From positions 32,001 to 96,000 of the forward strand of contig CAWBZV010000014.1 in NCBI GenBank assembly GCA_963793305.1: a stretch of 64,000 nucleotides of DNA, in the 5' to 3' direction. Under the pieces are notes generated by a model. It saw only the letters and a program-made list of their open reading frames with translations, was not told where the DNA came from and did no database searches. Position numbers and translations under genes: made by a program. The DNA comes from an uncultured Gemmatimonadales bacterium. Lineage in GTDB: Bacteria > Gemmatimonadota > Gemmatimonadetes > Gemmatimonadales > Gemmatimonadaceae. Position 1 is the first letter of the stretch, and every line of letters starts with the position of its first letter. Positions 41,039-63,917 of this stretch are shown here, in pieces.

Positions 41039-41046
41039 CACATGTT

Positions 41047-46606: not shown

Positions 46607-47016
46607 CATCACCGACCGTGAAGAAAGCCAAGTCGATGTCGAAGAAGCAGCTCGGGCACTTCGAGAAGCGGCTGTTGGAGGAGCGGAAGCGCGTCCTCAA
46701 GGAGCTCGGCAATTACAGCGAAGCTTTCGGCGCGACCATGCAGAATTCCGATGGCGACTTGAGCTCATATTCCTTCCATATGGCGGATCAAGGGACCGAC
46801 GCCATGGAACGCGAGAAGGCGTTTCTGTTCGCGAGCCAAGAGGGGCGCTTTCTGTGGCATATTGATGAGGCGCTTCGTCGCCTGTACCGTTCGCCGGAGA
46901 CGTTCGGCAAATGTCATCAGTGCGGGGAAGAGATAGCGTTCGAGCGGTTGGATGCCCTGCCGCATGCTAGGTTTTGCTTCTCCTGCAAGCAGCGCGAGGA
47001 AGATGGAAAGAAATAG
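46603..47016 (+). CDS. TraR/DksA C4 zinc-finger protein
   Basis: HMADQGTD, CHQC...ERLDALP..FCFSC. Confidence 0.92.
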   Translation: MTSPTVKKAKSMSKKQLGHFEKRLLEERKRVLKELGNYSEAFGATMQNSDGDLSSYSFHMADQGTDAMEREKAFLFASQEGRFLWHIDEALRRLYRSPETFGKCHQCGEEIAFERLDALPHARFCFSCKQREEDGKK

Positions 47017-47534
47017 TACCAACGCCAGAGTCTTCTGGGGCGTCTTGATCACCGTCGTCTTGCTGGACGTGGTGACCAAGCAGATGGCGGTGACCCAGCT
47101 CATGCCGAGACAGCTCCCCCACGAGGTGTTGGGAGACGCGATCCGGTTTACGCTCGTATTCAACGAAGGGGCGGCCTTTGGCCTCAAGTTCGGGCCGCTC
47201 TCGAGGTGGATTTTCCTCGGGGCCACGCTCGTGGCGTTGGTGATACTGGGGCGGCTGTACCGGGCGACCAAGGCCGGGGACGTGCTGCGGACGCTGGCGC
47301 TCGGGCTCGTGTGCGGCGGTGCGGTCGGCAATCTCATTGACCGCATCCGGTCGCCCATGGGCGTCGTGGACTTCATCGAACGTCGGGCTCCGCGAGCACC
47401 GGTGGCCGACGTTCAATGTCGCTGACATGGCCGTGAGCACGGGGGCCATTTTGCTCGCGTGGGTCCTGTGGAGCGAGGACCGTCACCACGCGACTCCGGT
47501 GAGCGCACCGAGCGAGACGCGCGAGGTGTCGTGA
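47003..47534 (+). CDS. lspA: lipoprotein signal peptidase II (one +1 frameshift at ~47380)
   Basis: DVVTK, NEGAAFG, GNLIDR; corrected VVDFIDVG...WPTFNVAD. Confidence 0.93.
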
Positions 47535-48493
47535 GCGGCGCCGGCGACGCCGGCGCCCGCTACGAGTTTGTCGTCCCACCCGATTCGGCCGCCCGCCTCG
47601 ACCTCGCGATCGTTGCGGCGACCGGGTTGTCCCGCAACCAGGCGGCGACGCTGATCGCCACCGGACAGGTTACCATCGACGGTCGCCGCGAGAGGGCGAG
47701 TTTCCGACCCCTCCCCGGAGCGCGGATCGTGGTCGACCTCCCTCCGGCGCCCGACCACCCGCTGGTGGCCGAGGACATCCCACTCTCGATCGTCTACGAG
47801 GACGAGTCGCTCCTCGTCGTCGATAAGGCCGCGGGGATGGTCGTTCACCCTGCGCCTGGGAATTGGAGCGGCACGCTGGTCAACGCCCTGCTCGGTCGCG
47901 GCGCCGCGCATTTGGTGCATCGCCTCGATAAAGAAACGTCCGGGCTTCTCGTCGTCGCCAAGAGCGAAAAAGTGCAGCGGCAGCTGCAGAGCGCATTGGC
48001 GGCGAGACAGCTGAAACGTTTGTATGCGGCGCTCAGCTGGGGACATCTGACAAGTGACCACATCACGGTCGACAAACCAGTTGGCCGCGATCCCCGAGAC
48101 CGAAAGCGGATGGCGATCGTCACTACAGGTCGACCGGCGAGGACAGACTTCGCCCGGTTGGCGCGCTACGACTCGGTGGACCTCCTCCGAGCCCGGTTGC
48201 ACACGGGACGCACGCATCAAATTCGCGTGCACCTCGCGTCGATTGGGCACCCGGTGGTGGGCGATGACACGTACGGCGGCGGTGGCGGACGGCGCGTGGT
48301 GGCGCTCCCTCCGCATCGACACTTTCTGCACGCCGCGTGGCTTCGCTTCCGTCACCCGATCACGGGCGCCGACATGGACCTGAGATCGCCGCTGCCAGAC
48401 GATCTGCTTCGATCACTGGCCGCCGTTTCGTACGAGGACACCGGGCTGGACGATGTTGGCTTCTACCGAATCGAACCCGACGACAGTCGATGA
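47531..48493 (+). CDS. rluD: RluA/RluD-family pseudouridine synthase
   Basis: S4-like RLD, KAAGMVVHP, HRLDKETSG, TGRTHQIRVH. Confidence 0.92.
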   Translation: MSGAGDAGARYEFVVPPDSAARLDLAIVAATGLSRNQAATLIATGQVTIDGRRERASFRPLPGARIVVDLPPAPDHPLVAEDIPLSIVYEDESLLVVDKAAGMVVHPAPGNWSGTLVNALLGRGAAHLVHRLDKETSGLLVVAKSEKVQRQLQSALAARQLKRLYAALSWGHLTSDHITVDKPVGRDPRDRKRMAIVTTGRPARTDFARLARYDSVDLLRARLHTGRTHQIRVHLASIGHPVVGDDTYGGGGGRRVVALPPHRHFLHAAWLRFRHPITGADMDLRSPLPDDLLRSLAAVSYEDTGLDDVGFYRIEPDDSR

Positions 48494-48938
48494 GCAGTAC
48501 GCGAGCACCGCGGACGCGCCACGGTTATTGCTGTTCGGCGTGGGCGGGCGACTCTGCGCCTGTGAGCTGGACGCTATTCGCGAAATCGTTCCCTATCGAC
48601 AAGCCACGCGACTGCCCGGCGCGCCGCCGTTCGTCACGGGCCTGATCAATCTGCGGGGATCGATTCTGACGGTGATGGACCTGGGTCTCAGACTCGGGGG
48701 ATCACCCATTGATCCCACGCGGGGATCGATTGTGCTGGCGGAGGCGGGACCGCGCGTCATTGGCCTCGGCGTCGATGAGCTCCGAGACGTGCAACGCGTT
48801 CCGCGAACGCAGATCGAACCGGCCGACGGCGAGATCGGCTCGGGGGTGGTGAGCGGCGTGCTCCAAGTGGGGGAGGACGTCGCGATGTTGCTCGACGTGC
48901 GGGCGATCATCAAGCAAATCTTCGGGGGAAATCTGTGA
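48453..48938 (+). CDS. cheW: chemotaxis adaptor CheW
   Basis: TRLPGAPPFVTGLINLRGSIL, IGLGVD. Confidence 0.92.
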   Translation: MLASTESNPTTVDEQYASTADAPRLLLFGVGGRLCACELDAIREIVPYRQATRLPGAPPFVTGLINLRGSILTVMDLGLRLGGSPIDPTRGSIVLAEAGPRVIGLGVDELRDVQRVPRTQIEPADGEIGSGVVSGVLQVGEDVAMLLDVRAIIKQIFGGNL

Positions 48939-49297
48939 GTCACTCAGTGCTGATCTGCGATGACGCGATCTTCATGCGGACGATGGTCGGCGACATCCTG
49001 ACCCAAGCCGGATTCGAGGTCGTCGGCGAGGCCGAGACGGGCCTGCAGGCGGTCGAGAAGTACAAGCAGCTGCGACCCGACCTCGTCACGATGGACATCG
49101 TGATGCCGGACATGGGTGGGATCGACGCGGTCCGCGAGATCACGAAGTTCGACGCCAACGCCAAGATCCTCATGTGCAGCGCGATGGGCCAGCAAGCGCT
49201 CGTCGTCGAGGCGATCCAGGCGGGCGCGAAAGACTTCGTCGTCAAACCTTTCCAGCCCAGCCGCGTGCTGGAAGCCGTCCAACGCGTCCTCGGCTAG
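48935..49297 (+). CDS. cheY: response regulator CheY
   Basis: ICDDAIFMR, TMDIVMP, CSAMGQ, FVVKPF. Confidence 0.95.
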   Translation: MSHSVLICDDAIFMRTMVGDILTQAGFEVVGEAETGLQAVEKYKQLRPDLVTMDIVMPDMGGIDAVREITKFDANAKILMCSAMGQQALVVEAIQAGAKDFVVKPFQPSRVLEAVQRVLG

Positions 49298-49303
49298 CTC
49301 CTC

Positions 49304-51253
49304 GTGGACACGTCGCGGTACGCCGAGCTCTTTCTCACCGAGAGCCGTGAGCATTTATCAGCCATCAACCACGCGCTGCTCGAAATGGAGCAGAACGGGG
49401 GGACGGCCGATACCGTAGGCGCATTGTTCCGCGCCGTGCACACGGTCAAGGGCATGAGCGCGACGATGGGGTACCACGACGTTGCTGATCTGTCGCACGA
49501 GTTGGAGACCCTGCTCGAGCGGTGTCGCCGGGGCGAGCTCGCGGTGACATCCCCACTGATGGATGTGTTGTTCAAGGCGGCCGACACCCTCGAATCGGCC
49601 ATCGAGAACGCCGTCGCTGACGGGCCTCCAGTCAAGATCGCCAAGATTATCGAGCGGTTGAAATCGATCAGCACCGAGACCACCAACGGTGGCTCGGCTC
49701 CGCGTCGCACGTCCGGCAAGGCCGCGCGCCAGCGCGCCGCGAAGAAGGCTGCGACGCCCTTATCCGTGCCGACGGTCGGCGCCGATCCCGGCACGATCGT
49801 CAAGGTCACGCTCGTCCCCGATACGCCGCTGCCCGGCGTACGCGCGGTGATGGTACTGAACAAGATCCGATCGCTCGGCAAGGTCGTCGCTGTCGATCCC
49901 CCAGAAGACGACTTGGCACACGACGGGTTCAACGGTTGCTTTACGTGCACGATGATCGGGGCGGCGCTCGCGCCCGAGATCGAGGACGCGATTCGCTCCG
50001 TGGGCGACGTTGACACCGTTCAGATCACGGGCGCGCCCGTCCTGGCCGCGCGCCGCGGCACAACGGTCCTCCAAGCCGTGGGCAACGAAGAGACCGGGGT
50101 CAAGCAGCAGCGCCATGTGCGCATCGATCTGCGCCGGCTCGATTCTCTCATGAATCTGATCGGCGAGTTGGTCATCACGCGCGGACGGTTGTTCGAGATC
50201 GGGCGCTCTCTGGCGGATCCGGCGCTCGACGACTCGCTCGCTCAGGCCTCGCGGCTCATCGGCGACCTCCAGGACGAGATCATGACCTGCCGCATGGTCC
50301 CCGTCTGGCAGGTCTTTGACCGGTTCCCACGTCTCGTTCGCGATGCCGCCCGTACGCTCGGAAAGGACGTCACGCTGGAGATCGAGGGCAAAGAGATCGA
50401 GCTCGATCGCTCGATGCTCGACGAGATCGGCGATCCGATCGTGCACTTGCTGCGCAATGCCGTCGATCATGGCATCGAGACGCCCGACGAGCGGGCCAAG
50501 CAGGGCAAGCCGGTCATCGGCCGCCTGACGCTGAGCGCGGCGCGCGATCGCTCGAACGTCCTGATAAGAGTCTCGGACGATGGGCGGGGGATCGATCGCG
50601 GGAAGGTGCTGAGAAAAGCCCAAGAGACGGGACTGATCGACCCGGCGACTGTGGAGCTCACCGACGAAGAGCTGATGCGGCTCATCTCCAAACCGGGATT
50701 CAGCACGGCGGAAGCCGTGACCGAGATCTCCGGACGGGGTGTGGGTATCGACGCGGTGCAGAATCGCGTCCGAGCCCTTGGCGGATCCGTCGATATCAGA
50801 ACCGCGCCGGGGCGCGGGACGACCGTCACGGCCAGGTTGCCCCTCACGCTGGCGATCATGCGAGCCCTGCTCGCGCGCGTCGCCAATGAAGTGTATGCGA
50901 TTCCGATGGCGCACGTGCGCGAGACGATCTCGCTCGACGGCGCAAATGTGTCGACGCTGCAGGGGAAACCCGTGCTGCTGCTGCGCGAGGTCGTCATGCC
51001 ACTCGTACGCCTGCGTGACGTGGTTGGGCTGCCGGGACGAGTGATCGAAGCGGGCGAGGACGCCGAGCAAGCCATCGTCGTCGAGCTGGCTGATAAAGAA
51101 GTCGCGGTCGTTGTCGACCAACTCCCGGGTCAGCAGGAGATCGTGGTGAAGCAGTTCGATGGGGTGCGCGGTGGCCTGAATCTGTTCACCGGTGCGACGA
51201 TCCTCGGCGACGGCGCGCCCGCCTTGATCGTCGATGTGAGCAGTCTTTTCTGA
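49304..51253 (+). CDS. cheA: histidine kinase CheA
   Basis: FRAVHTVKG (Hpt), HLLRNAVDHGIE, DDGRG, SGRGVG, CheW domain. Confidence 0.97.
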   Translation: MDTSRYAELFLTESREHLSAINHALLEMEQNGGTADTVGALFRAVHTVKGMSATMGYHDVADLSHELETLLERCRRGELAVTSPLMDVLFKAADTLESAIENAVADGPPVKIAKIIERLKSISTETTNGGSAPRRTSGKAARQRAAKKAATPLSVPTVGADPGTIVKVTLVPDTPLPGVRAVMVLNKIRSLGKVVAVDPPEDDLAHDGFNGCFTCTMIGAALAPEIEDAIRSVGDVDTVQITGAPVLAARRGTTVLQAVGNEETGVKQQRHVRIDLRRLDSLMNLIGELVITRGRLFEIGRSLADPALDDSLAQASRLIGDLQDEIMTCRMVPVWQVFDRFPRLVRDAARTLGKDVTLEIEGKEIELDRSMLDEIGDPIVHLLRNAVDHGIETPDERAKQGKPVIGRLTLSAARDRSNVLIRVSDDGRGIDRGKVLRKAQETGLIDPATVELTDEELMRLISKPGFSTAEAVTEISGRGVGIDAVQNRVRALGGSVDIRTAPGRGTTVTARLPLTLAIMRALLARVANEVYAIPMAHVRETISLDGANVSTLQGKPVLLLREVVMPLVRLRDVVGLPGRVIEAGEDAEQAIVVELADKEVAVVVDQLPGQQEIVVKQFDGVRGGLNLFTGATILGDGAPALIVDVSSLF

Positions 51254-51262
51254 GGCCCTGAA

Positions 51263-51883
51263 ATGGAAGACATTCGCTCGTTGAAGGCGATTCAACTCGA
51301 CGCGTTGCGCGAAGTCGCGAACATCGGCGCCGGCCATGCGGCCACCGCCCTGTCGCAGATGACCGGCAACACGATCATGATCAGCGTGCCGACGATCAAT
51401 ATCGCGCGGCTCGAGGACGTGCCACCGCAGATCTCCGGCCCGGAAGAGCCGGTGGCCGCGGTGCTCATGAACATGCTCGGCGACCTCACCGGTCGCACGT
51501 TGTTGGTCTTTCCCCGACCAACGGCGCTCCGGCTGTCCGACCTGATGCTCAATCGACCCGGGAACAACGGCGGCGATCTCGGGGAGTTGGAGCAATCGGC
51601 GATTAAAGAGTGCGGCAACATCCTGAGCGGCGCGTACATGAACGCCCTGAGCGATTTTATGGGCCTCATGCTGCTGCCGTCGCCGCCCAGCCTGGCCGTG
51701 GACATGTCCAGTGCGGTGCTGACGACGGCGTATCTGCAGTTCGGAACCGATCGCGACTACGTGTTCTGCGTCGAGAGCGAATTCCACATGCAGGACTTCA
51801 ACGAACGGCTGCGCGGGTTCTTCCTCCTCCTGCCGGACGTGGCCTCGCTGCATGCCATTCTGCGCGCCGTCAAGGTCGCGTAG
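51263..51883 (+). CDS. cheC: CheY-P phosphatase CheC
   Basis: DALREVANIG and SAIKECGNIL (two ExxN sites). Confidence 0.93.
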   Translation: MEDIRSLKAIQLDALREVANIGAGHAATALSQMTGNTIMISVPTINIARLEDVPPQISGPEEPVAAVLMNMLGDLTGRTLLVFPRPTALRLSDLMLNRPGNNGGDLGELEQSAIKECGNILSGAYMNALSDFMGLMLLPSPPSLAVDMSSAVLTTAYLQFGTDRDYVFCVESEFHMQDFNERLRGFFLLLPDVASLHAILRAVKVA

Positions 51884-51891
51884 GCGCGGGT

Positions 51892-54585
51892 ATGGACGTG
51901 GGCGCGCCCCCACTGATGTCCGAGCGGGACCGCGAGGTCCTGCGCTCGTTCGCGCGCCGCATTGATCCCTCGGACGCCGGGGCCCACAACAACCTCGGCG
52001 TTCTCTACTATCACAAAGGCTTGCACGAGGAGGCCGTCGAGGCCTTCACGCGCGCCCTCGAGCTCGACGGGAAAATGCAGGTTGCCCAGCGCAATCTGGA
52101 GATCGCGTACTTCTCGACCGGATACTACGAGCGCCGGGTCGGCGAGCTCCGCGAGCGCCTGCGCGTCACGCCCGCGGACCGCGAGGCGCGGTGGGAGCTG
52201 GGGCGCGCGTATGCGCTGCTCGGCCGCTCGAGCGAGGCGGTCAACGAATTCAACGAGTTGCTGCGCTACCATCCTGACGATCTCGGGGCAGTCGTCCAAC
52301 TCGGACTGGCCGAGAAAGCCTCGGGCGACCTCGAAACGGCGCAACAGTGGTTTGAACGGGCTCGGGACCTCGATCCGGCGAGCTCGGTCATCCATTTCTA
52401 CGTCGGCGAGGTCCTCTACAACCGCGGGCTGAACGACGAAGCCCTGGCGGCGCTCAACAAGGCCATCGAGCGGAATCCCGATAACCCGGACGCCCACTAT
52501 TTGATGGGCTTCGTGCTCGGCGACATGGGCCGACACGACGAGGCGCGCGAGGCGACGAAGCGGGCCATTCGCTTGAACCCGACGCTGTCACGGGCCCAGG
52601 CGAATCTGACACTGGACGGCGGTCCCCGCCGCATCTCGGCGCCGATGGCGGTCGCCGAAGAGGGTCAGCTCGCGCACTATAATTTGGGCTTGGCGTTCCG
52701 GCAGAAGGGGTACTATGTCGAGGCGCTGCGAGAGTACCAGCTGGCGCTCGACCGCGGCGAGGACGCGCCGCTCGTTCAGCAGGCGATGGCGGAAGTCCAC
52801 CTGCTGCGCAAGGACGTCGCGGCGGCGGTCGCCACCTACGACCAGCTGCTGAACCTCCAGCCCGAGAGCCCGAAGCTGTGGAACGAGCGCGGCGTCGCGC
52901 TCCATCAGCACGGGAAGTACACCGAGGCGGCCGAGTGCTATCAAAAAGCGCTCGACGCGGATCCGCGCTACGCGCTGGCCGCGAACAACCTCGGCGTCGC
53001 CCGGTTCCACGGTGGCGAGAACGAGGGGGCCGTCACGGCGTTCGAGACCGCGCTCGACATCGCCCCCACGTTCGTCAAAGCGCGCCTGAATTTCGCGCTG
53101 CTGCTAATGAAGGGGAAGCGCCTGCAGCAGAGTCTCGAAGCCTACCGTCAGGTGCTCCTCCACGCGCCCGAGAACGCCGTCGCCTGGAACGGCGTGGGCC
53201 TGGTGCTCACCGAGTTGCGCAAGTTCGAGGACGCGCGCAATGCCTTTGCGCGGGCGACGCAAAGCCGGCCGAATTACGCCGAGGCGCACTATAACCTGAG
53301 CTTTGCGCTGTCCAATCTCGGCGACTTCGACAGTGCGCTGCGCGAGACGAAGCGGGCCCTGGAGCTCGATCCGTATTACGTGCCGCAGAAGTTCGAGCTG
53401 ACCATCGATCTCCAGTATGAGGATCCGGATCTCTCGATCGTTCCGGATTTGGGGGGAGCACGACAGACCTCGGCACCCATTGAAGAGTTCGCGTTCGATG
53501 CCACCGTGTTGGATTCGCTGTTCACGGAGCTGACGCCACCGGCCGCTGCATTGGCGATGGCCACCGAGGCGCCGTTGGCGAACCCTTACGCGATGGCGGC
53601 CGACTATCTGTCGAAGGGTCTCTATGATAGGGCCACGGCCGAGGTGAGCCGGGCCTTGCTGAGAGGGGGAGATCGGGCCGACGGCATGGCGCTGCTCGGC
53701 GATGTCTTCGTGCATCAAGGACTGCATGGCGAAGCGCTGGAGCGTTACCGGGACGCACGCCGGGTGCAGGGTGTGCATTTGCGGGCCATGATGGGCGAGG
53801 TCAAAGCGCTCCTCGCCTTAGGCCGGACCAAAGATGCCCGACCGGTTGCCGAAGACCTGCTCGGAGCGGCGCCCGAAGATGTCGATACGCTTCTCCTGGC
53901 GGCGACGGCCAGAGCAGCGACCGGAGATCTGGACGCCGCGCTCGCCGCGCTGGCCCTCGCCAGACGGGCCGCCCCGCAACGAGCCGACGTCGCGCAGAAA
54001 ATCGGCGACGTGCGAAAAGTCGCCGGAGACCGAAGCGGCGCCAGAGCGTCGTACTATGAGGCGCTGGCACTCGACGGAGACCTGGCGGTCGTCCGGTTCG
54101 AGCTGGCGAGGTTGCTCGTGGGCGACGGCCATGAGACCGACGCCGAGGCCGAGCTGCTGGCGGCGTTGGACGCGGTGCCGACCTATGTCGACGCCTCGCT
54201 GGAGCTGGCGCAGCTCTGGCGTCGGACGGGGAAAAAGGAAGCCGCCATGCGGGTCGTCATCGAGTTGTTGGAACGCGATATGACGCTGACGCCGGCGCTC
54301 CTGGCGTTGGGCGAGCTCTTGTTCGAGCTGGGGCGACGAAAGGACGCGGCGTTGGCGTTCGCGCGGTTGCGGCGCATGGAACCCGCGCACCCGGCCGCGC
54401 TCTACTACGAGGGGGCGTTGTTCGCCGAGCAGCACCGATTCCGGGAAGCCATCGAGCGCTGGGAGAAAGTCGTGGAGATCGAACCGGATGGCCCGTACGG
54501 CCGGCGCGCGCGTCGCGACGGGCGCACCGCCGCGGACCTGGCCAAGATCTTCACCAACGGCGCGCGCGCCAACGGGAGGCATTAG
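51892..54585 (+). CDS. large TPR-repeat protein
   Basis: Many canonical TPRs (AHNNLG, AHYLMG, AHYNL); about 897 aa. Confidence 0.9.
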   Translation: MDVGAPPLMSERDREVLRSFARRIDPSDAGAHNNLGVLYYHKGLHEEAVEAFTRALELDGKMQVAQRNLEIAYFSTGYYERRVGELRERLRVTPADREARWELGRAYALLGRSSEAVNEFNELLRYHPDDLGAVVQLGLAEKASGDLETAQQWFERARDLDPASSVIHFYVGEVLYNRGLNDEALAALNKAIERNPDNPDAHYLMGFVLGDMGRHDEAREATKRAIRLNPTLSRAQANLTLDGGPRRISAPMAVAEEGQLAHYNLGLAFRQKGYYVEALREYQLALDRGEDAPLVQQAMAEVHLLRKDVAAAVATYDQLLNLQPESPKLWNERGVALHQHGKYTEAAECYQKALDADPRYALAANNLGVARFHGGENEGAVTAFETALDIAPTFVKARLNFALLLMKGKRLQQSLEAYRQVLLHAPENAVAWNGVGLVLTELRKFEDARNAFARATQSRPNYAEAHYNLSFALSNLGDFDSALRETKRALELDPYYVPQKFELTIDLQYEDPDLSIVPDLGGARQTSAPIEEFAFDATVLDSLFTELTPPAAALAMATEAPLANPYAMAADYLSKGLYDRATAEVSRALLRGGDRADGMALLGDVFVHQGLHGEALERYRDARRVQGVHLRAMMGEVKALLALGRTKDARPVAEDLLGAAPEDVDTLLLAATARAATGDLDAALAALALARRAAPQRADVAQKIGDVRKVAGDRSGARASYYEALALDGDLAVVRFELARLLVGDGHETDAEAELLAALDAVPTYVDASLELAQLWRRTGKKEAAMRVVIELLERDMTLTPALLALGELLFELGRRKDAALAFARLRRMEPAHPAALYYEGALFAEQHRFREAIERWEKVVEIEPDGPYGRRARRDGRTAADLAKIFTNGARANGRH

Positions 54586-54588
54586 GCC

Positions 54589-55741
54589 ATGGCGATCGAA
54601 GGACCGCTGCGCGAGCTGAGCATACACGATGTCTTCCAGCTGCTGGATCTGAGCCGGAAGACCGGCGCGTTGCGCGTCACGTCGGTGCTCCGCGACAACG
54701 AAGGCACGGTGCTGTTCGATCGCGGCCGCGTCATCTCGGCCAGCATCCGGTCGAGCCCGAACCCGCTCGGCGCGGTCCTCGTCCGGGCCGGCCGCATCAC
54801 CGAGCGCGATCTGGAGCGCGCCCGGAAGGTGCAGCAGGAGAATGGCGCGACGAAGCGATTGGGCGAGATCCTGCTCCAGATCGGAGCGATCTCGGCCCGC
54901 GAGCTGGAGCGCCAGGTGCGTTTACAGATCGAGACGGTCGTGTTCGAGCTCATGTCGTGGCGCGAAGGGTTCTTCTCGTTCGAGGAGCGCGATGTCGGCC
55001 ATGCGCAACTCGAGGCGGCGGTCCACGTGTCGACCGAGTCGCTCCTCATGGAGGGGGCGCGCCGCATCGACGAGTGGAGCCGGATCGCCGACAAGGTGCC
55101 GCACCTGGGCGTGATCCCGATCCTCGCGGCGGTGAACGAGTTGCACGCGACGCAGCTCGATCTGCTGCCGAACGAGTGGGAAGTGTTGGCGATCATCGAC
55201 GGTGCGAACGACCTGCACGGCATCGCGGCCGCGCTCGGCCGGTCCGAGTTCGAACGTCGCGAAAGTCGTGTACGGCTTGCTCACGACCGGCGTGGTGGAG
55301 CTGCGCGGCGGCAGGGGCACGCCCGTCGCGGTGCAGGCGACCGCGGCGCCCGACCCGGCGCGGTACCTGACGCTCGCGGAGGCGGCGCTGGCCGACGGGC
55401 TGTACGACGAAGCGCTCAATTCGGCGCGCTCGGCGATCGCCGCCGATCCGCGCGCGCCCGCGGCGCGCCTCATGGCGGCGCGAGCCTTGCGAAAGCTCAA
55501 GCGGCATGCGGAAGCGGCCGACGAGTTGCGTCGGGCGGCCGAGGCCGACCCGAAGCATCCGCATATCCAGCTGGAGCTCGGACTGGCGGCGCTCTGTCAG
55601 GGCGATTTCCGCGGCGCCGTGCACATCTGGCGGCAATACCTGGAGGCCGCCCCCGAGGAGGCCGAAGCGACCGAAGTCCGCGAAGCCGTCGATTCGGCTG
55701 CGCGACTCGATCGATTTGTCGAGAGCTATGTCGGTGTCTGA
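54589..55741 (+). CDS. DUF4388-like + TPR protein (one +1 frameshift at ~55254)
   Basis: AIEGPLRELSIHDVFQLL..KTGAL, RLGEIL, WREGFFSF, LLMEGARRIDEW; corrected SEFDVAK matches paralog SEFDVGK. Confidence 0.85.
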
Positions 55742-56645
55742 CGATATCCGCCGTTGGAGCGATGAGCTGGCGCGCAGTCCCGCCAGCATGGTCTTCTTGC
55801 CTTTGGGCGAGGCCCTGCGCACGCGCGGGCAGATCGACGTCGCGCTGCGCGTCGCGTTGCGCGGGCTCGAGCGCCATCCGTACGACGCCGACGCGCACGA
55901 CCTGCTCGCGCGCATCTACGCCGATCGCGGCGAGACCGAGCGGGCGCTCGACGAATGGGATGCGGCCATCCGCTGTACGCCCGGGCACGCTGGCGCCCTC
56001 AAGGGCATGGGCTTCGTCTGCTTCAACCAGGGCCGCATCGTGGACGCCGAGCGGTATCTCGCCGAGGCAGCAGCCGCGAGTCCGGAAGACGACGGGCTCG
56101 CGATGGCGCTCGAGCGCGTCCGCGCTGCGGCTACTCCGCCTGACCCTGAGCCCGTGGCTGCACCGGCGCCCGAGCCGGAACCCGAACCCACACCTGTCGC
56201 CAACGGCAACGGCCACGGCCCGACGAATGGCGACGTGCGGGCCGAGCCAACGCTCGCCGAAGGCGACGCGCACTTTGGCGATCCACGACAGCTCTTTGCT
56301 GATCTCATTGGCGTGGCGGACCAAGCCGCGCTGCTGCTGGATGAGGACGGCCTGGTGATGGCGGGCCAGTACGTGGTCTCCGATGGCATGGACGTCGGAG
56401 CCGAAGTGGGCGCTGCCCTGAGCGGCATCAGCGACGAGGCGAGGCGCGCCATGCGGCATCTCCCGCTCGGCGACTGGCGCACGATCATCTTCGAGACGCC
56501 CGCCGCAACCGTCGTGATGACACCGGCCCCGCAGGATGGCCTGGTGCTCGTCGCGGCCGCGCCCGAAGTGCCGTCAGGCCTCGTGCGTCGCGCCCTCGAG
56601 AGCGTATCCCAGCGCGCGAAACGCTGGATGGAGCAGCTCTCATGA
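55728..56645 (+). CDS. TPR + roadblock/LC7 domain protein
   Basis: N-terminal TPRs, PEP linker, C-terminal ALLLDEDGLVMAG roadblock-like domain. Confidence 0.8.
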   Translation: MSVSDDIRRWSDELARSPASMVFLPLGEALRTRGQIDVALRVALRGLERHPYDADAHDLLARIYADRGETERALDEWDAAIRCTPGHAGALKGMGFVCFNQGRIVDAERYLAEAAAASPEDDGLAMALERVRAAATPPDPEPVAAPAPEPEPEPTPVANGNGHGPTNGDVRAEPTLAEGDAHFGDPRQLFADLIGVADQAALLLDEDGLVMAGQYVVSDGMDVGAEVGAALSGISDEARRAMRHLPLGDWRTIIFETPAATVVMTPAPQDGLVLVAAAPEVPSGLVRRALESVSQRAKRWMEQLS

Positions 56646-56998
56646 GCTCGAGCTCGCCGTTCATTCCCTCGCTCGAACACCTGACACGCCAGCGCGGCGT
56701 GCTCGGCAGCCTCGTGGTGAGCGAGACCGATGGCATCGTCATCGATGCCGTGGTACAACCGAGCGTCAAGGCACCAGTCGTCGCGGCGCTCGCCGCGTCG
56801 CTCTATCGGCGCGCCCGGCAGTCGGCGCACGCCGCGGGACTCGGGGGTGTGAGGTACTTGGAGCTGGTGGCCGACGGCGGCCGGCTCTGTATGGCCGGGC
56901 GCGATGATCTCGTGGTCGTCCTGGTGACCGATACCCGCGTCGGGGTGGGACTGCTGCGCGTCGAGTTACTTCGAACCGCCGCGGAGTTGCCCGAGTGA
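56642..56998 (+). CDS. roadblock/LC7 domain protein
   Basis: GVLGSLVVSETDGIVI, VAALAA, GLLR. Confidence 0.85.
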   Translation: MSSSSPFIPSLEHLTRQRGVLGSLVVSETDGIVIDAVVQPSVKAPVVAALAASLYRRARQSAHAAGLGGVRYLELVADGGRLCMAGRDDLVVVLVTDTRVGVGLLRVELLRTAAELPE

Positions 56999-57465
56999 GC
57001 CTCGCCGTCGTCGAGCGCTGGGTCGAGGCGCCGCTCAGGCGATTCGTCGAGGACGCGCAAGCCGTGCTCGCGCTCTTGCTGACGCCCAGTGGTCAGGTGC
57101 TGGCCCAGCACGGGTTCACGCGCGCGGTCGACGTCATGTCGGCGTGCGCGCTGGCGGCGGCCATCCATGCATCGTCGACCGAGCTCGGACGACAGTTGCA
57201 GGGCCGGCCCTTCGCGGGCCTGCATCACGCGGGCCGCCGGCGGCAGCTCTTCCTGGCGCGCGCGGATACCCCGCGCGGGCCGTACGTGTTCTTGACCGTG
57301 TTCGACCAGGCGAGCTCGCTCGGCCTGGTGCAACTCTACTACGATGAGTTCACGGCGCGCTTGGGCGATGCCGCGCCACCGAAATCGAATGATACGACCG
57401 AGATCCTGGCGGAGAACTTCGAGTCGGAGTTGGATCGCAACCTGAAGCTCTTGTTTAGCCGATAA
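56995..57465 (+). CDS. mglB: MglB-like roadblock protein (putative MglA GAP)
   Basis: LLTPSGQVLAQHG, ACALAA, VFDQASSLGLV, acidic C-terminal helix; directly upstream of mglA. Confidence 0.78.
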   Translation: MSLAVVERWVEAPLRRFVEDAQAVLALLLTPSGQVLAQHGFTRAVDVMSACALAAAIHASSTELGRQLQGRPFAGLHHAGRRRQLFLARADTPRGPYVFLTVFDQASSLGLVQLYYDEFTARLGDAAPPKSNDTTEILAENFESELDRNLKLLFSR

Positions 57466-58070
57466 TGTCGCTCGTCAACTATTCCACCCGCGAGATCACG
57501 TGCAAGATCGTCTACTACGGCCCAGGGCGGTCGGGGAAGACGTTGAATTTGCACTACATCTACGGGCAGGTGCCGAGCGATCGCAAAGGCAAGATGGTCT
57601 CGTTGGCGACCCAAACCGACCGCACCCTGTTCTTCGATTTCCTGCCATTGGACCTGGGCTCGATCTCCGGGTTCACCACCAAGATCCAGCTCTATACGGT
57701 CCCTGGGCAGATCTACTATCAGACCACCCGCCGGCTCGTGCTCCAGGGCGCCGATGGCGTCGTCTTCGTCGCCGACAGCCAGAGTCGGCAACTGGAAGAG
57801 AACATCGAGAGCTTGCAGGACCTGCACGCGAATCTGGAAGAACAAGGGGTCGACCCCCGCGGCGTTCCGCTGGTGCTGCAGTACAACAAGCAGGACTTGC
57901 CGCGCGATCTGATTCTGGACGAAGCCACGCTCGATGACGCGCTGAACTTCAGGGGCGTTCCCCATTTTGCCGCCGATGCGCTGCATGGCGCCGGCGTATT
58001 CGAAACCCTCCGTGGCATCTCGGAGCTGGTGCTCAAGCGATTGAGCTCGCCCAACGGGGCGCGACGCTGA
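57465..58070 (+). CDS. mglA: Ras-like GTPase MglA
   Basis: REITCKIVYYGPGRSGKT, TDRTLFFDFLPL, YTVPGQ, QYNKQDL. Confidence 0.95.
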   Translation: MSLVNYSTREITCKIVYYGPGRSGKTLNLHYIYGQVPSDRKGKMVSLATQTDRTLFFDFLPLDLGSISGFTTKIQLYTVPGQIYYQTTRRLVLQGADGVVFVADSQSRQLEENIESLQDLHANLEEQGVDPRGVPLVLQYNKQDLPRDLILDEATLDDALNFRGVPHFAADALHGAGVFETLRGISELVLKRLSSPNGARR

Positions 58071-58071
58071 A

Positions 58072-59956
58072 ATGGCGAACAATCGCTATCGGTTCGACAA
58101 CTTCATCGTCGGCTCGGCCAATCGCTTAGCCGTGGCGGCCGCGCGCGCGGTCGCCGAGTCGCCCGGGAGTGCCTACAACCCCCTGTTCATCTATGCCGGA
58201 TCAGGGCTCGGCAAGACGCATCTCATGGGCGCGATCGCCCATCACGCCGCGTCAGTCCAACCGGCACTTAAACTCGATTACCTGTCGCTCGACGAGTTCG
58301 TGCGCCAGTTGCATGCGGCGGTATCGATAGGACAGGCCGAGAATTTTCGGCAACGATATCAGCATGTCGACCTGCTGCTCCTCGATGACGTGCAGTTTTT
58401 GACCGGACGCCGAGAGACGCAGAGCGAGATGCTGCGCCTGTTCAACGCCCTGCAGGGCGCCGGCCGCCAGATCGTCATGACGAGCGACCGGCCGCCGTCC
58501 GACATCGCCGATGTCGACGAACGGCTGCTCAACCGGCTGGCGGGTGGCCTCATTGTCGACATCGGCGCGCCCGACTACGAGACGCGGGTCGCGATCCTCA
58601 GGAGCAAATGCGAGGAGCGCGAGGTGCGATTCGCGACCGGCGTCATCGAAGCGCTGGCCAAGATGACGTTCGGGAATGTCCGTGAGCTGCAAGGCGCGCT
58701 CAATCGCCTGATCGCCCATCAGACGCTGGAGGAAGGCGATCTCACCGCCGACGATGTCGCGATGCTGCTCGGTGGCACGACCGCGACCCGGAGCACCGTC
58801 GAACGCGATAACAGCGGCGAATACCTGGCCTTTCTCACTGGCGTGCAGCGCGTCGTCTCCGAGAACGCGTGGCGGGTCCGGCTCGGCGAAGGCATCGCGT
58901 ACTGGCGCGGCGAAGGCTACCGCACGGGTCCACTCGATCGGCTCTTCGAGGGGCGTGTCGAGCCGGACGTTCGAGCGCGTCCTCACGGACTTCTCGACAT
59001 TGATCGACCGGTTGCGGGCACTGGAGGCCGAAGCGACCACCGTCGACGCATCGCTCGGCGGCGCTGATGTGTTCCGCGATCCGGATCGCCTGTCTCAGGC
59101 CGAGGCGCTGGTGGTGAAGGCGCAAGCGGGCGAGGTCGCACCGGACGGGCCGTCGCCCGCGTTTACGCGTGACGAGTACGAGGTCGGCGCCGCGAACCAG
59201 CTCGCGGTGCGCGCGGCCGATGCCATCATCGCCGATCCCGGGCGGCGCTACAACCCCTACTTCATCCATGGGCCGAGTGGCGTCGGCAAGACCCACTTGA
59301 TGCACGCGATCGGGAATGGGATTGCGGGATCGACGTGCCTCGGGGCGCAGCAGTTCGTGGACAGCCTGATCGCTGCGCTGCAAGAAGGCACGGTCGAACG
59401 CTGGCGTGCCCGGTTCCGCGCTGCCGGCGCATTGCTCATCGATGACGTGCACTTTCTCGCCGGCAAAGAGCGGACGCAAGAAGAATTGTTTCACGTGTTC
59501 AACGACATGTACGACCAAGGCAAACAAGTCGTGCTGTCGAGCGACCGTCCGCCGAAAGAATTGGAGGACCTGGAAGAGCGTTTGCGATCCCGGTTCGAGG
59601 GCGGATTGGTCGTCGCCATTCAGCCGCCCGATCGTGGCCTCCGTGAGAAGTTGTACGCTCGTTTCCTGGCGAGGGCCGATATCGAGCCGGAGCCGGCGCT
59701 CGTCATGTATCTCGCGGACCGCCCCGTGGCGAGCGTGCGAGAGATTGCCGGAACGATTCAGCGGCTCATGGCGACGGCCGAAGTCGCCGGTGCGGCGGTG
59801 TCCCTCGATCTCGCGCAAAACGAGCTCGATGGCCCGGGCTCCGCGCGCGTGCCGGCGCCGAAGGAGATGGCGGTCGACGCGTTCTTCCTCGATGACGAGA
59901 AAGTCATCTGGGACTGGCCGGAGATGAGCGGCCGCGTCATCGAGGAGTGGCGCTAA
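58072..59956 (+). CDS. tandem DnaA/Hda-type AAA+ protein lacking DNA-binding domain IV (one +1 frameshift at ~58971)
   Basis: Two DnaA domain III copies: YNPLFIYAGSGLGKTHL..LLDDVQFL and YNPYFIHGPSGVGKTHL..LIDDVHFL..RLRSRFEGGL; 627 aa after correction. Confidence 0.88.
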
Positions 59957-59957
59957 G

Positions 59958-61574
59958 ATGGCCATCAAAGGCAGCCTCAAAGAGGCCAGTCTGCCGGACG
60001 TGCTCCAGCTGCTTGCCATGGGCAAGAAGACGGGGTGCCTCAGCGTCACGCATCGGAACAACTTCGGCTACATCTACTTCGAGAAAGGGCGCATTGCGTA
60101 TGCGTCCATTGTCAATCGGCGCGACCGCCTCGGCGATCTGCTGATCAAGGCCGGTTTGATCACCCGTGACCAGGTGGACGAAGCGATCGGATCCCAGCCC
60201 GGCTACAAAGACAAGCGTCTCGGCGACATTCTCGTGGCCCAGGGCCTGGTCTCGCGCGACGAGCTGCACGCGCAGATACGGGTGCAGATTCAGGAAGCCG
60301 TCTATTTCCTGTTCACGTGGTCGCAAGGCTCGTTCAACTTCGAGGCGGACATCCGCCCCGAAGAGCTGGACTTTGTGGTGTCGATCAACCCCGAATCCCT
60401 GCTCCTGGAAGGCGCGCGGCGGGTCGACGAGTGGGGATTGATCAGCAAGAAGATTCCGAGCTTCGATCTCGTGTTCGAGATCGATCGCGATCGACTCAAG
60501 CAGAGTGACGTCACGCTCACGCACCAGCAGGAAGTGCTGCTCGATTCCATCGACGGCAAGCACGACGTGACCGCGCTGGTCGATGCGAGCGGACTCAGTG
60601 AATTCGACGTTGGCAAGGCGTTGTTCGCGCTCCTGTCGGCGGGCTTCCTGCATCGCGTGGGGACCAGCAAGGCCGAGCCGATGGTCTCCGACGCGCGCGT
60701 CGAAGAGCACCGGAACCTCGGCATCGCGTTCTACAAAACCGGCATGTTCGAAGAGGCCGTCCGCGAGTTTCGGCGGGTCTCCGAGTGTCGGCCCGCCGAT
60801 CAGGGCGCGCCGTTCTATCTCGGTCTGGTCCTGATGCGCCAGGGGAAATGGCCGGCGGCCGCCGACGTCTACCGCGGCGCCGCGCAGACCCTTGGGGCCA
60901 AGCCGGCGGTGTTTTGCAACCTGGCGTACATCCTGGAGCGTCTCGGTGAGTACGACGAGGCGCGCGCGGCACTCGACGAGGCCGTCAAACGCGGCGCGGG
61001 GAATTTGCCGCAAGTGCGCACCTCGTACGGCGCCCTGGCGCTCCGTGGCGGAGATATCGCGGAGGCGGACGCGGTCCTCTCTGCCGCTCGCCCGCTGTGG
61101 GGCAAGAGGCCACCACCACCCGCGTGGTTCCACTACGCCGGATTGGCGGCGGCGTTGGCGGGAGATCTCGACCGGGCCACGGAGCTCCTGACCGAAGGAA
61201 CGGCGCTGCACCCGCATGCCGCGGCGCTGTTCAATAATCTGGCCGCGGTCGCGGAACGACGCGGGGGCTGGGCCGACGCCGCGATGTTCATTGAGCGCGG
61301 CACGGCCGAGGATCCGGCGTTGCCGCAGCTGCACAAGAACTCAGGCGACTATGCGTACCGCTCGGGACAGTATGACGAAGCGCTCGACGCGTATCAGCGT
61401 GCGACGCGACTCAACCCCGCGCTGGGCGACGATGTCTTCTTCAAGATCGGCAATATTCGCTATCGACGACGCGAGACGGCCGAGGCCGTGAAGTGTTGGG
61501 AACGCGCGCTGGAGCTCGAGCCGGCGAATGCGATCATACGGAGTAATCTGGACGCGGTCCGGCGGGCGGGATGA
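59958..61574 (+). CDS. DUF4388-like + TPR protein
   Basis: AIKGSLKEASLPDVLQLL..KTGCL, RLGDLL/RLGDIL, WSQGSFNF, LLLEGARRVDEW, C-terminal TPRs. Confidence 0.88.
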   Translation: MAIKGSLKEASLPDVLQLLAMGKKTGCLSVTHRNNFGYIYFEKGRIAYASIVNRRDRLGDLLIKAGLITRDQVDEAIGSQPGYKDKRLGDILVAQGLVSRDELHAQIRVQIQEAVYFLFTWSQGSFNFEADIRPEELDFVVSINPESLLLEGARRVDEWGLISKKIPSFDLVFEIDRDRLKQSDVTLTHQQEVLLDSIDGKHDVTALVDASGLSEFDVGKALFALLSAGFLHRVGTSKAEPMVSDARVEEHRNLGIAFYKTGMFEEAVREFRRVSECRPADQGAPFYLGLVLMRQGKWPAAADVYRGAAQTLGAKPAVFCNLAYILERLGEYDEARAALDEAVKRGAGNLPQVRTSYGALALRGGDIAEADAVLSAARPLWGKRPPPPAWFHYAGLAAALAGDLDRATELLTEGTALHPHAAALFNNLAAVAERRGGWADAAMFIERGTAEDPALPQLHKNSGDYAYRSGQYDEALDAYQRATRLNPALGDDVFFKIGNIRYRRRETAEAVKCWERALELEPANAIIRSNLDAVRRAG

Positions 61575-62374
61575 GCGACGAAGGCGAATTTCAGCAGCTG
61601 CTGTCGAAGATCGCGACCGAGCGCCAGTTCCACTGCCAGCACTACAAAGAGAAGTGCTTGCGGCGGCGCATCGGCGTCCGTCTGCGCGCGCGCGGCCTGC
61701 ACAGCTACTCGGATTACGCGCGGCTCCTGGACGGGGACGCGCGGGAGTACGAGAAGCTGCTCGATACGCTGACCATCAACGTCACCAAGCTCTTTCGGAA
61801 TTGGGAGACGTGGGAGGCGATGGCGGCCCACGTGGTTCCGGCGATCTGGGGGGAGCCTCGCAATGTGCACATCTGGAGCGCCGGGTGCTCATCGGGCGAA
61901 GAGGCGTATTCGCTGGCCGTCCTCATGCATCGCCACGCCAGCGCGATGCACGAATCACATCGGTTGAATCGCGTGGATATTCTGGGGACCGACATCGACC
62001 GCGAGAGTTTGACGGCCGCCGCGAAGGGGCTGTTCGATGACGATGCCTTCACCGATACGCCGGCCGAGATCAGAACCGCCTATTTCAGTCCGACGCAGCC
62101 GGCGACCGTGCGAGCCGACGCGAAACAGCTCGTCCGGTTTGAAAAGCGAGACCTGATCCGCGGCGACGCGCCCAAGGGCCTGCACCTGATCGCGTGCCGC
62201 AACGTGATCATCTATTTCGATCGCGTCACGCAGGAGCAGTTGTTCGTCCGGTTCCACGACGCGCTCGAGCCCGGCGGCTTTCTCGTGCTGGGCAAAGTCG
62301 AAACCCTGCTCGGCGCCACGCGCTCGTTGTTCGAGCCAGTGGACGCGCGCGAGCGCATCTTCCGCCGCCGGTGA
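61571..62374 (+). CDS. cheR: chemotaxis methyltransferase CheR
   Basis: LTINVTKLFR, IWSAGCSSGEEAYS, GTDID, CRNVIIYFD. Confidence 0.95.
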   Translation: MSDEGEFQQLLSKIATERQFHCQHYKEKCLRRRIGVRLRARGLHSYSDYARLLDGDAREYEKLLDTLTINVTKLFRNWETWEAMAAHVVPAIWGEPRNVHIWSAGCSSGEEAYSLAVLMHRHASAMHESHRLNRVDILGTDIDRESLTAAAKGLFDDDAFTDTPAEIRTAYFSPTQPATVRADAKQLVRFEKRDLIRGDAPKGLHLIACRNVIIYFDRVTQEQLFVRFHDALEPGGFLVLGKVETLLGATRSLFEPVDARERIFRRR

Positions 62375-62853
62375 ACGAGCACATTCGCGTCAAGGTCGCC
62401 GACTACGCCGTGGCCCGCGGCGATGCGATCATCGCCACCATCGGCCTCGGGTCGTGCGTCGCGATCACGGTCTACGACAACACCGCGCGCGTCGGTGGAT
62501 TGGCGCACATCCTGTTGCCGACCGAAGGCATGTCGCGCGATACACACAATCGCGCCAAGTTCCCGGGCTCGGCCGTCCCGCTCCTGCTCGAGGAGATGCG
62601 GAAGCTCGGCGCGAAAGGGCCCTTTCAGGCCAAGCTCGTCGGTGGGTCGAGCATGTTCGCGTCCCTCTTGCCACAGGGCGGCGTGAATATGGGTGACCGC
62701 AATGTCGATGCGTGCCGGCGCGCGCTGGGTCAAGCACAGATCTCGTTGATCGCGCAGGACACCGGTGGCACGTACGGCCGCAGCGTGTTCCTGCACATCC
62801 GCGATGGTCGCGTCATCGTTCGCTCGCTGGCGCACGGCGAGAAGATATTGTGA
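62371..62853 (+). CDS. cheD: chemoreceptor glutamine deamidase CheD
   Basis: TIGLGSCVAI, LAHILLP, KLVGGSSMF, DTGGTYGR. Confidence 0.94.
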   Translation: MNEHIRVKVADYAVARGDAIIATIGLGSCVAITVYDNTARVGGLAHILLPTEGMSRDTHNRAKFPGSAVPLLLEEMRKLGAKGPFQAKLVGGSSMFASLLPQGGVNMGDRNVDACRRALGQAQISLIAQDTGGTYGRSVFLHIRDGRVIVRSLAHGEKIL

Positions 62854-63917
62854 GCAACGTGAAGAGCGTCCTCGTAGTCGATGACAGCGCGTTCATGAGA
62901 AAAGTGGTCAGCGAGCTCGTGTCCGCGTCCAACGAGTTTCGCGTCATCGGGACGGCGCGCAACGGCTATGACGCGCTGAAGCAGATTCACACGCTCGAGC
63001 CGGACATCGTCACGATGGACATCGAGATGCCGGAGCTCGATGGCATCCAAGCGCTCGGATATATCATGTCCGAGACGCCGCGGCCGGTCGTGATGCTGAG
63101 CGGGGCCGAGACCGACGACTCGCGCGACCACACCATTCGCGCGTTGGAGCTCGGCGCCGTTGACTTTGTGCGCAAACCGTCCGGTCCCGTGTCGCTCGAC
63201 TTGCCGACCGTACGGGAACAGTTGTTGGCCGCGTTGCGCGCCGCCGCGTGCGTCAATTTGCGCGGTGTCGATGTCCTCGCACGCCCACGACAGTCGGGCA
63301 CGTGGCGGGTACCCGAACGAACGGGCGGAGCGACGAGGGTGGTTGTCATTGCCGCATCGACCGGGGGGCCCCGAGCGCTGGCCGAGGTCATCCCAAATTT
63401 GACCCCCACGATCGATGCCGCCGTACTGGTCGTGCAGCACATGCCCGGTGGATTTACGGCGAGCCTTGCCCAGAGACTCAACGACATGAGCCCCCTCAGG
63501 GTCGTCGAGGCCAAGGACGGGGATCGAATTGTCCACAATCGTGTGTATTTAGCCCCGGGGGGGTATCACATGCGCGTAGCGATACGGGACGGGTTGCCTA
63601 CGCTCACGTTAGATACCGCCGCCCCGATTTGGGGGGTGCGACCGGCGGCTGACCCGTTGTTTCGGTCGGCGGCCCAGATTTTCGGGCCATCCGTGGTTGG
63701 CGTCGTCCTGACTGGCATGGGGCGCGACGGCGCCGAAGGGCTCCGGACGATCCGAGACGCCGGGGGGCAGGGCGTCGTCCAAGATCAGATGACCTCTACG
63801 ATCTACGGTATGCCCCAGGCGGCGCTGGTGACCGCTGGAGCGGACCGTGTGGCGTCGCTTGTCGACGTGGCGCCCGCGGTCGCTGATCTCCTGGCCGCAG
63901 GCGGACGGGCGTCGTGA
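62850..63917 (+). CDS. cheB: chemotaxis methylesterase CheB
   Basis: REC (VVDDSAFMR) plus ASTGGP, VQHMP, LTGMGRDGA, YGMP. Confidence 0.96.
   Translation: MSNVKSVLVVDDSAFMRKVVSELVSASNEFRVIGTARNGYDALKQIHTLEPDIVTMDIEMPELDGIQALGYIMSETPRPVVMLSGAETDDSRDHTIRALELGAVDFVRKPSGPVSLDLPTVREQLLAALRAAACVNLRGVDVLARPRQSGTWRVPERTGGATRVVVIAASTGGPRALAEVIPNLTPTIDAAVLVVQHMPGGFTASLAQRLNDMSPLRVVEAKDGDRIVHNRVYLAPGGYHMRVAIRDGLPTLTLDTAAPIWGVRPAADPLFRSAAQIFGPSVVGVVLTGMGRDGAEGLRTIRDAGGQGVVQDQMTSTIYGMPQAALVTAGADRVASLVDVAPAVADLLAAGGRAS

Follow-up and report, generated by a model that had tools for sequence, protein, structure and literature searches.

The DnaA ATPase core is familiar from replication initiation and its direct regulators. 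We analyzed a 64,000-nucleotide stretch (referred to from here on as the window) from the genome of an uncultured Gemmatimonadales bacterium (G000), in which a gene at 58072-59956 specifies a protein with two such cores in tandem and lies among chemosensory and mgl genes. In fold, in sequence, and in Walker A/B, sensor I/II, and arginine finger, each of the two modules is like DnaA domain III from B. subtilis (8BV3/8BTG), T. maritima (2Z4R), and A. aeolicus (2HCB/3R8F). Unlike DnaA, however, the window protein has tandem modules, lacks domains I and IV, divides the nucleotide pocket and the finger face between its modules, has lost the single-stranded DNA (ssDNA) residues of module 1, and is not encoded beside dnaN. 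Hda is likewise a DnaA paralogue without a helix-turn-helix (HTH) and with a short docking motif, an N-terminal clamp-binding motif of the QLSLF type, and it lends an arginine finger in trans (PMC5397184). In contrast, the window protein has two modules and no QLSLF-type motif, falls below the Hda cut-offs, and carries its predicted docking motif at the C terminus, where it tracks a tetratricopeptide repeat (TPR) protein. The MglA-SgmX-FrzS-SopA-PilB pathway of Myxococcus, in which MglA, SgmX, and SopA act on PilB, also comprises an MglA GTPase, roadblock proteins, long TPR proteins, and a chemosensory system (PMC11580455), but in the window the corresponding parts are encoded in a single operon together with a DnaA-type ATPase. 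The downstream neighbor of the tandem gene, here called DUF4388b, shares with cyanobacterial PatA-type (PATAN/DUF4388) regulators and MshEN receptors a PATAN domain with a helical insert and a 24-residue motif present twice; it differs from PatA-type regulators in having TPR repeats in place of the receiver domain, and its binding of cyclic di-GMP (c-di-GMP) and PilB is putative. Finally, p97/CDC48 and ClpB also have two AAA+ modules of unequal activity per chain, but the window modules belong to the initiator clade and show no sign of a hexameric translocase, and p97 came below DnaA in a fold search (TM score about 0.3, 13-16% identity). Group 1 MglA genes lie near PATAN genes, including in Gemmatimonadetes, in a survey (PMC4316618) that makes no mention of DnaA in its main text; its supplementary table S2, on MglA neighborhoods, may bear on novelty. 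A description of a tandem DnaA family was not found in the main texts of the open-licence PMC and bioRxiv literature.

A first-pass annotation of the window had described two DnaA domain III modules without domain I or IV, and this description proved accurate. Both Walker A motifs (GSGLGKT and GPSGVGKT), two Walker B DD pairs, two SDRPP motifs, two arginine-finger regions, and the C-terminal tail FFLDDEKVIWDWPEMSGRVIEEWR are present, and Pfam Bac_DnaA matches each half (E values of 1e-56 and 2e-50). The intact orthologue P0001 (627 amino acids, genome G001) contains two PF00308 stretches (E value of 2e-108) and gave no Pfam match to DnaA_N or Bac_DnaA_C at a maximum E value of 5. Domain I (PF11638) had no Pfam match, the protein beginning at domain III in alignment with B. 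subtilis residue 110; nor did the domain IV HTH (PF08299), the Bac_DnaA_C matches of the genome being confined to contig C3. On that contig, as had been anticipated, a full dnaA (480 amino acids) lies beside dnaN (G000:C3, ~385600-388400). In the AlphaFold model of P0001 (mean predicted local distance difference test (pLDDT) score of 85.5), an AAA+ module, a helical linker, a second AAA+ module, and an unfolded tail follow one another; residues 588-627 have a pLDDT below 50, and no folded domain lies beyond the second lid, so that neither Pfam nor the model places an HTH in the C terminus. The best PDB matches of the model, by sequence and by fold, are DnaA domain III structures, and modules 1 and 2 share 45 and 39% identity, respectively, with Bacillus DnaA domain III. 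The TIGR00362 cut-off is passed solely by summing the two stretches (525 versus 344 bits), which explains the "DnaA" labels in databases, and the Hda/HdaA models are not reached (TIGR03420, 166 versus a cut-off of 195; NF005982, 72 versus 268). We conclude that the tandem protein is neither DnaA nor Hda but a variant of the initiator-clade AAA+ regulators in a polarity-type operon. The earlier interpretation is partly supported: its proposal of an initiator fold reused in signaling or polarity agrees with a conserved operon, a separate true dnaA, and the lack of a DNA-box domain. A second dnaA-like gene was also seen in this genome (G000:C3:469425-470623; L006:9425-10623), with domains III and IV but no domain I; it lies away from dnaN, adjoins a Ku-like gene, and is split by frameshifts in this assembly, and matches of similar size (open frames of 336-382 amino acids) occur in G001, G003, G004, and G005.

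In the assembly, the 1885 nucleotides of 58072-59956 are spread over two frames, with module 1 in an open reading frame (ORF) at 58072-59067 and module 2 in another at 58754-59956. Alignment with G001, G004, and G005 traced the split to one surplus T at 58970/1. Three public runs, which belong to two studies (X1, X2, and X3), have contigs that omit this base, and it is therefore very likely an assembly error; run X1, whose contig differs at 5 letters in 4218, is perhaps the window's own sample and is good evidence on assembly error, not an independent strain. The tandem gene is a single ORF in 20/20 fetched relatives (in G007, with module 1 shortened), and the best 120 database matches, whose source names point to Gemmatimonadaceae and many of which are labeled DnaA or DnaA/Hda family, span 99-100% of P0001. 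Two separate genes or a pseudogene are ruled out, as the split comes down to one base without counterpart in relatives or run contigs. The single gene proposed at first pass therefore holds for the relatives and the run contigs, but not for the letters of this assembly. The 1-nucleotide gaps proposed on either side are exact: the mglA stop ends at 58070 and the tandem gene's ATG starts at 58072; its own stop ends at 59956, and the ATG of DUF4388b starts at 59958. The upstream DUF4388a gene is also split, by an extra base at 55253/4 that is absent from relatives and from runs X1, X2, and X4 and is an assembly error too.

With a profile of the inter-module linker, the gene was found in 201/301 genomes of the phylum; when 80 linker-negative genomes were searched again with the full profile, the gene was found in 3 and not in the other 77. 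We then compared a panel of 40 linker-positive and 40 linker-negative genomes, the counts being descriptive because kin are not independent. An orthologue of DUF4388b is present in 40/40 linker-positive and 11/40 linker-negative genomes. Coupling to mglA, which had been put forward as the defining link, did not hold up: mglA is absent from the locus in 7/40 linker-positive genomes (G015 and six of family f7) and in five reduced-form genomes (G072, G091, G093, G199, and G219). As these 12 genomes keep the tail gene and DUF4388b, mglA is ruled out as an obligate linked partner; all 12 retain some MglA elsewhere, and action in trans is therefore possible. Family f7 lacks the che/mgl block: 7/8 loci run rluA-tandem DnaA gene-DUF4388b, and the eighth still has an mglB-like gene. 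G008 and G290 have lost both the tandem gene and DUF4388b at the locus and retain the flanks.

In all 11 linker-negative carriers, a tail-bearing gene lies directly upstream of DUF4388b. The product in 10 of these is a peptide of 67-76 amino acids made up solely of an acidic amphipathic helix (helix H, EFxxFxxD) and the tail (WxWP...RxIEELR), and in the 11th (G219), it is one degenerate module plus the tail; the mini form has at least two origins on the partner tree. In families f11/f12, one homologue of which is named Candidatus Glassbacteria, the gene directly before a TPR-only gene encodes one DnaA core, an acidic linker, and a tail of related sequence, IMEWDREEDRMLNEL (4/4 loci). The TPR-only gene is a homologue of the C-terminal half of DUF4388b without PATAN, and the two have the LGxAFYxTxM start of the first TPR in common; this homology is modest (22-27% identity), and the assignment leans on synteny. 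A tail profile matched 121/121 full-length homologues and only this gene among the 65,043 ORF ends of the genome. Decay of the protein in relatives, which the first-pass annotation had held to count against its view, is real for the modules, one or both of which are degenerate or lost in several lineages, but not for the tail, which these lineages retain. Judged by its conservation, the tail is the one indispensable part of the protein across relatives. Given the mini-proteins, the single-module form of f11/f12, and a tail that is unfolded alone and unique in the genome, we predict the TPR part of DUF4388b to be the likely docking site of the tail. As a separate observation, proteins whose N-terminal domain is Fe-hydrogenase-like (PF02906, a weak match) form a group that occurs in 44/61 genomes of the family (e.g. 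G000:C3:261004-261786 and C3:213297-214193; L211, L212, and L215); 3/10 fetched members end in helix H and the repeat unit of the linker, and P0237 also bears the tail.

In DnaA, R202, R206, R260, and R264 sit on the filament face that reaches the nucleotide pocket of the neighboring subunit. To compare the modules with DnaA, 54 orthologues were mapped to B. subtilis numbering via a Bacillus DnaA of identical numbering, with functional residues taken from PMC6669920 and with 34 canonical DnaAs as controls (among them, 20 of 80 Bacillota dnaA loci from a genome scan described below). Walker A, Walker B, sensor I, and sensor II occur together in 54/54 modules 1 as aligned (more safely 53, with the lid-less G007 row set aside) and in 11/54 modules 2, whose nucleotide pocket is intact in the genus of the window and degenerate in most of the family. 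The finger-face set R202/R206/R260/R264 shows the reverse pattern, being found in 5/54 modules 1 and 44/54 modules 2, although an arginine-finger residue is present in both modules; all 34 controls have both sets. This division suggests one composite site, with the nucleotide in module 1 and the finger face from module 2, and the conservation of module 1 catalytic residues together with the module 2 finger face argues for selection on that site. The same conservation speaks against the ATPase modules being mostly a vestigial spacer in a protein of which only helix H and the tail matter: module 1 hardly varies in its catalytic residues, and module 2 retains its finger face in families f1-f4, f7, and f8. 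Repeated degeneration or loss (G007, G069, G116, G195, G219, G298, and the mini-proteins) would fit a spacer, as would the divergent members of the family, in which, among 50%-identity cluster representatives, module 1 is intact in 23/39; overall, we consider a spacer very improbable. In such representatives, the finger-face set is present in 18/40.

A second explanation for the module 2 residues is an Hda-like regulator of replication, in which the finger face would trigger hydrolysis in ATP-DnaA or cap its filament and the tail would tie the protein to a polar signaling complex, so that signaling gates initiation. R202, R206, R260, R264, and L269, all needed for the B. subtilis DnaA filament (PMC6669920), are retained in 53/54, 45/54, 54/54, 53/54, and 53/54 modules 2, respectively; Hda sets the precedent of an HTH-less paralogue with a short docking motif (PMC5397184), and the operon has a divIVA-ileS-lspA-rluA block on one side and an rsmH-ftsL-ftsI-mur cluster on the other. 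However, the matching nucleotide face on module 1 explains this conservation without DnaA, a clamp-binding motif is found in 0/121 N or C termini, and the TIGR03420 score is below the cut-off. Further, 10 genomes have lost both modules, and a search of 80 linker-negative genomes gave no match to the gene in 77. Both modules also lie outside the Gemmatimonadota dnaA clade in a quick tree with long branches, and Thermoplasmata use HTH-less DnaA cores although archaea are not known to have a DnaA initiator to regulate. Co-polymerization with DnaA via module 2, raised at first pass, is a possible but weaker reading, and we think an Hda-like role unlikely. In the same tree of DnaA cores, which supplied the phylogeny of both halves that had been proposed as a check, each module forms one clade; because the two clades are both apart from Gemmatimonadota dnaA, the duplication is, on this topology, old.

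The ssDNA pair I190/K222 is present in 34/34 canonical controls and in 0/54 modules 1 (H/R in the window). Its occurrence, as I190/V with K222, in 34/54 modules 2 and in 16/22 Thermoplasmata-type cores would be expected if module 2 responded to DNA, e.g. taken up through pili, and signaled to the motor, and the pilus gene pilM is near universal. Absence of the pair from module 1 nevertheless breaks the continuous track of a DnaA-like filament, and only 6/40 divergent module 2 representatives retain it; we give an ssDNA sensor no more than a slim chance.

The operon in which the tandem gene resides has the order cheW-cheY-cheA-cheC-TPR-DUF4388a-TPR/roadblock-roadblock-mglB-mglA-tandem DnaA gene-DUF4388b-cheR-cheD-cheB, which is retained in 20 fetched loci to the extent of their contigs, with the exception of G015 (without mglB, mglA, cheR, and cheB) and G017 (without cheD). 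Its cheA is the only one found in G000, and no methyl-accepting chemotaxis protein (MCP) gene lies within the operon. Because G000 (92% complete) gave no match to FlgI but has cheA, 12 MCP matches, and pilB-pilC, and because FlgI occurs in 16/40 linker-positive and 8/40 linker-negative panel genomes, we conclude that the operon is a non-flagellar chemosensory system; a flagellar role is ruled out, as FlgI does not track the gene and was not found in G000. In DUF4388b, DUF4388 is the PATAN domain, and the MshEN-type motifs, which fit the relaxed form of the published c-di-GMP motif pattern (PMC5013675), lie in its helical insert. At least one full motif occurs in 29/46 DUF4388b orthologues, and the insert is absent in 9; Pfam PF05157 gave no match on DUF4388b. 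The N-terminal MshEN-type motifs of PilB in G000 start with GIG and SIG, not RLG. In Synechocystis, PATAN domains are binding partners of PilB1 and PilC (10.1101/2021.06.11.447907). For a docking switch of this kind, an output at the division site or growth pole in place of pili would agree with a locus that stays between rluA and the rsmH/division and cell wall cluster even without che/mgl genes (f7 and G219), and with flagella that do not track the gene. We regard this output as quite improbable, because an old insertion site may account for the position (in G008 and G290, the genes are lost and the flanks kept), and because known PATAN outputs are pilus motors.

Taken together, we propose that the protein acts as a clustering switch under ATP control, with a predicted docking contact between its tail and the TPR part of DUF4388b, which would then regulate the type IV pilus motor or cell polarity; we give this proposal about an even chance. 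The starting point is a pair of initiator-clade AAA+ modules, without domains I and IV, encoded beside a constant PATAN-TPR gene within a chemosensory/MglA operon of non-flagellar type. Module 1 would bind nucleotide and module 2 would lend the finger face, so that each pair of modules would have one complete DnaA-type site; the conservation behind this shared site is observed, its geometry is presumed, and in most cases the reverse site is degenerate. In response to ATP, module 2 would close onto module 1, either of the same chain or of another chain in a head-to-tail arrangement. The TPR array would be bound by the tail, possibly together with helix H, as the pattern of gene loss indicates, and the ATPase modules would set the timing and number of partners gathered, in which case the 70-amino acid mini-proteins would be constitutive adaptors. 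By analogy with known families, PATAN would be the output to PilB/PilC, the MshEN-type insert would read c-di-GMP, and CheA/CheY and MglA would feed in where present.

Several observations weigh against this clustering switch. First, co-retention of adjacent, translationally abutted genes may partly reflect operon structure, and pilM is present in 76/80 panel genomes, so that pili do not separate gene-bearing from gene-less genomes. Second, the predicted TM score (pTM) of the P0001 model, 0.50, does not fix the relative placement of the two modules, module 1 retains its own finger R264 in 52/54 orthologues, and the ssDNA pair in 34/54 modules 2 is superfluous to the model. Third, ATP turnover is evidently not universal in the family, because module 1 is intact in only the 23/39 divergent representatives noted above. 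Fourth, the MshEN insert is deleted in 9/10 mini-protein genomes, but these form one clade and a single event, and G133 has lost the ATPase and retained the insert; co-loss of the MshEN insert as independent support is thereby reduced to one event and a counter-example. Fifth, the MshEN and T2SSE fusions described next are separate lineages on the tree and not orthologues of the window gene.

The inter-module helical unit is, as far as its sequence goes, a mobile domain: a profile search across 1.84 billion representatives turned up large proteins in which it is present 4-19 times, one of them named Thermoplasmata archaeon. Only P0127 and P0304 are named Thermoplasmata, and the taxon of the remaining Thermoplasmata-type proteins is taken from likeness. 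A repeat-only profile scored a median of 25.9 bits on Gemmatimonadota linkers (115/121 above 20; reversed or shuffled controls, 1.9 or less), and the linker aligned with the Thermoplasmata-type repeats at an hhalign probability of 72; the linker profile gave weak single-domain E values on the archaeal-type repeats (best, 6e-5; most >0.05 at library scale). The homology of repeats and linker follows from these reciprocal profile scores and hhalign. In a fold search, the linker unit gave no clear PDB match, its best Z of 5.6 (EzrA, root mean square deviation of 7.5, 109 aligned) lying within the range seen for unrelated helical bundles, and an Atlas feature search gave no usable match to it. The repeat proteins P0152, P0218, P0219, and P0288 also bear an HTH-less DnaA core; Thermoplasmata-type cores are near canonical (21/22 pockets intact), and other HTH-less cores are fused to DUF835. 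A PATAN-like N-terminal domain, suspected by eye in the Thermoplasmata-type repeat proteins, was not confirmed (hhalign probability of 0.2; no DUF4388/DUF2226 Pfam match). P0301, an apparent fusion to DUF4388, has no contig on record, may be an artefact, and is not used as evidence.

Two further architectures were seen. In P0304, from a Thermoplasmata archaeon, a DnaA core is joined to a T2SSE-family (pilus/archaellum-type) ATPase; when genomes were scanned with P0304, all matches were Bacillota dnaA (the source of the control loci above), and a metagenome scan returned one 2.5-kb contig. In P0274-P0285, of ~1900 amino acids and without an HTH, MshEN is followed by two DnaA cores with a long helical region between them, and it is the second module that has lost the finger face, the reverse of the window protein. 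An ESM Atlas cluster of 617-amino acid Bac_DnaA proteins, mostly from Elusimicrobiota, aligns to P0001 residues 1-516 and is possibly another tandem form. The fusion proteins show that the DnaA core is used without an initiator role, joined to pilus-motor domains in two families. A broader idea, which we hold only tentatively, is that HTH-less DnaA domain III serves as a portable ATP switch and that bacteria and archaea have repeatedly connected it to type IV filament motors and their regulators, by tail docking in Gemmatimonadota, in the MshEN-double-DnaA fusion, and in the Thermoplasmata fusions (pilus/archaellum-type ATPase, DUF835, and tandem repeats).

The features of the locus are collected in Table 1. 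Among the che genes, cheC, cheR, and cheD were assigned by Pfam and cheA from PF02895 matches at the same position in relatives; cheW, cheY, and cheB were assigned by sequence reading. The operon is flanked by a yggS-divIVA-pnp-ileS-dksA-like-lspA-rluA block and an rsmH-ftsL-ftsI-murE-murF cluster (window 41044-48493; L007:6850-12754), genes named from ORF reading, and the rluA and rsmH flanks persist in relatives. After cheB, downstream of the window (L007:1915-6842), there are two cheW-like genes, a TPR protein gene, a peptidase-MA-like gene, and another TPR protein gene. A second MglA paralogue (G000:C2:655979-656653; 48% identity, longer) lies outside the operon, with similar copies in most genomes of the order, and pilB and pilC are at G000:C5:177288-181592.

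Table 1. Positions of the tandem DnaA gene, its parts, and its operon neighbors in the window
Feature	Position	Strand	Remarks
Tandem DnaA-domain-III gene	58072..59956	+	627-amino acid single ORF in close relatives; split here by extra base
AAA+ module 1, residues 1-234	58072..58773	+	Walker A/B, sensor I, and sensor II intact
Acidic amphipathic helix H, residues ~249-265	58816..58866	+	EYLAFLTGV; family consensus DEFxxFLxxV; retained in mini-proteins
Helical repeat unit, residues ~266-351	58867..59125	+	W..EGY...LE..L...DP; one copy here
Extra T	58970..58971	+	TT versus T in relatives and run contigs
AAA+ module 2, residues 360-587	59150..59833	+	Canonical arginine-finger face
C-terminal tail T	59873..59953	+	EKVIWDWP...RVIEEWR; disordered when folded alone; predicted docking motif
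DUF4388b, PATAN (DUF4388) with two MshEN-type motifs and TPR	59958..61574	+	Constant neighbor, likely partner
Two 24-residue MshEN-type motifs, DUF4388b residues 57-80 and 87-110	60126..60287	+	Both fit published relaxed pattern
mglA-type small GTPase	57465..58070	+	
Roadblock/LC7 protein, mglB-like	56995..57465	+	
Second roadblock/LC7 protein	56642..56998	+	
TPR-roadblock fusion protein	55731..56645	+	Start approximate
DUF4388a, second PATAN-TPR gene	54589..55741	+	Split at 55253/4
Long TPR protein	51892..54585	+	Start approximate; SgmX-like by architecture only
cheW, cheY, cheA, cheC	48453..51883	+	
cheR, cheD, cheB	61571..63917	+	

Throughout most of a major soil phylum, the DnaA core is retained in a signaling operon, and its routine labeling as "DnaA" inflates initiator counts. 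The natural deletion series of two modules, one module, and a 70-amino acid peptide isolates a small docking motif together with its likely receptor. Chemosensory, MglA, PATAN, and c-di-GMP parts, which lie dispersed in Myxococcus, are here united in one transcript-sized block, and the operon could reveal how these parts are wired to the pilus motor. If the broader idea of a portable switch is true, the initiator filament would have a second, unrecognized life as a polarity scaffold.

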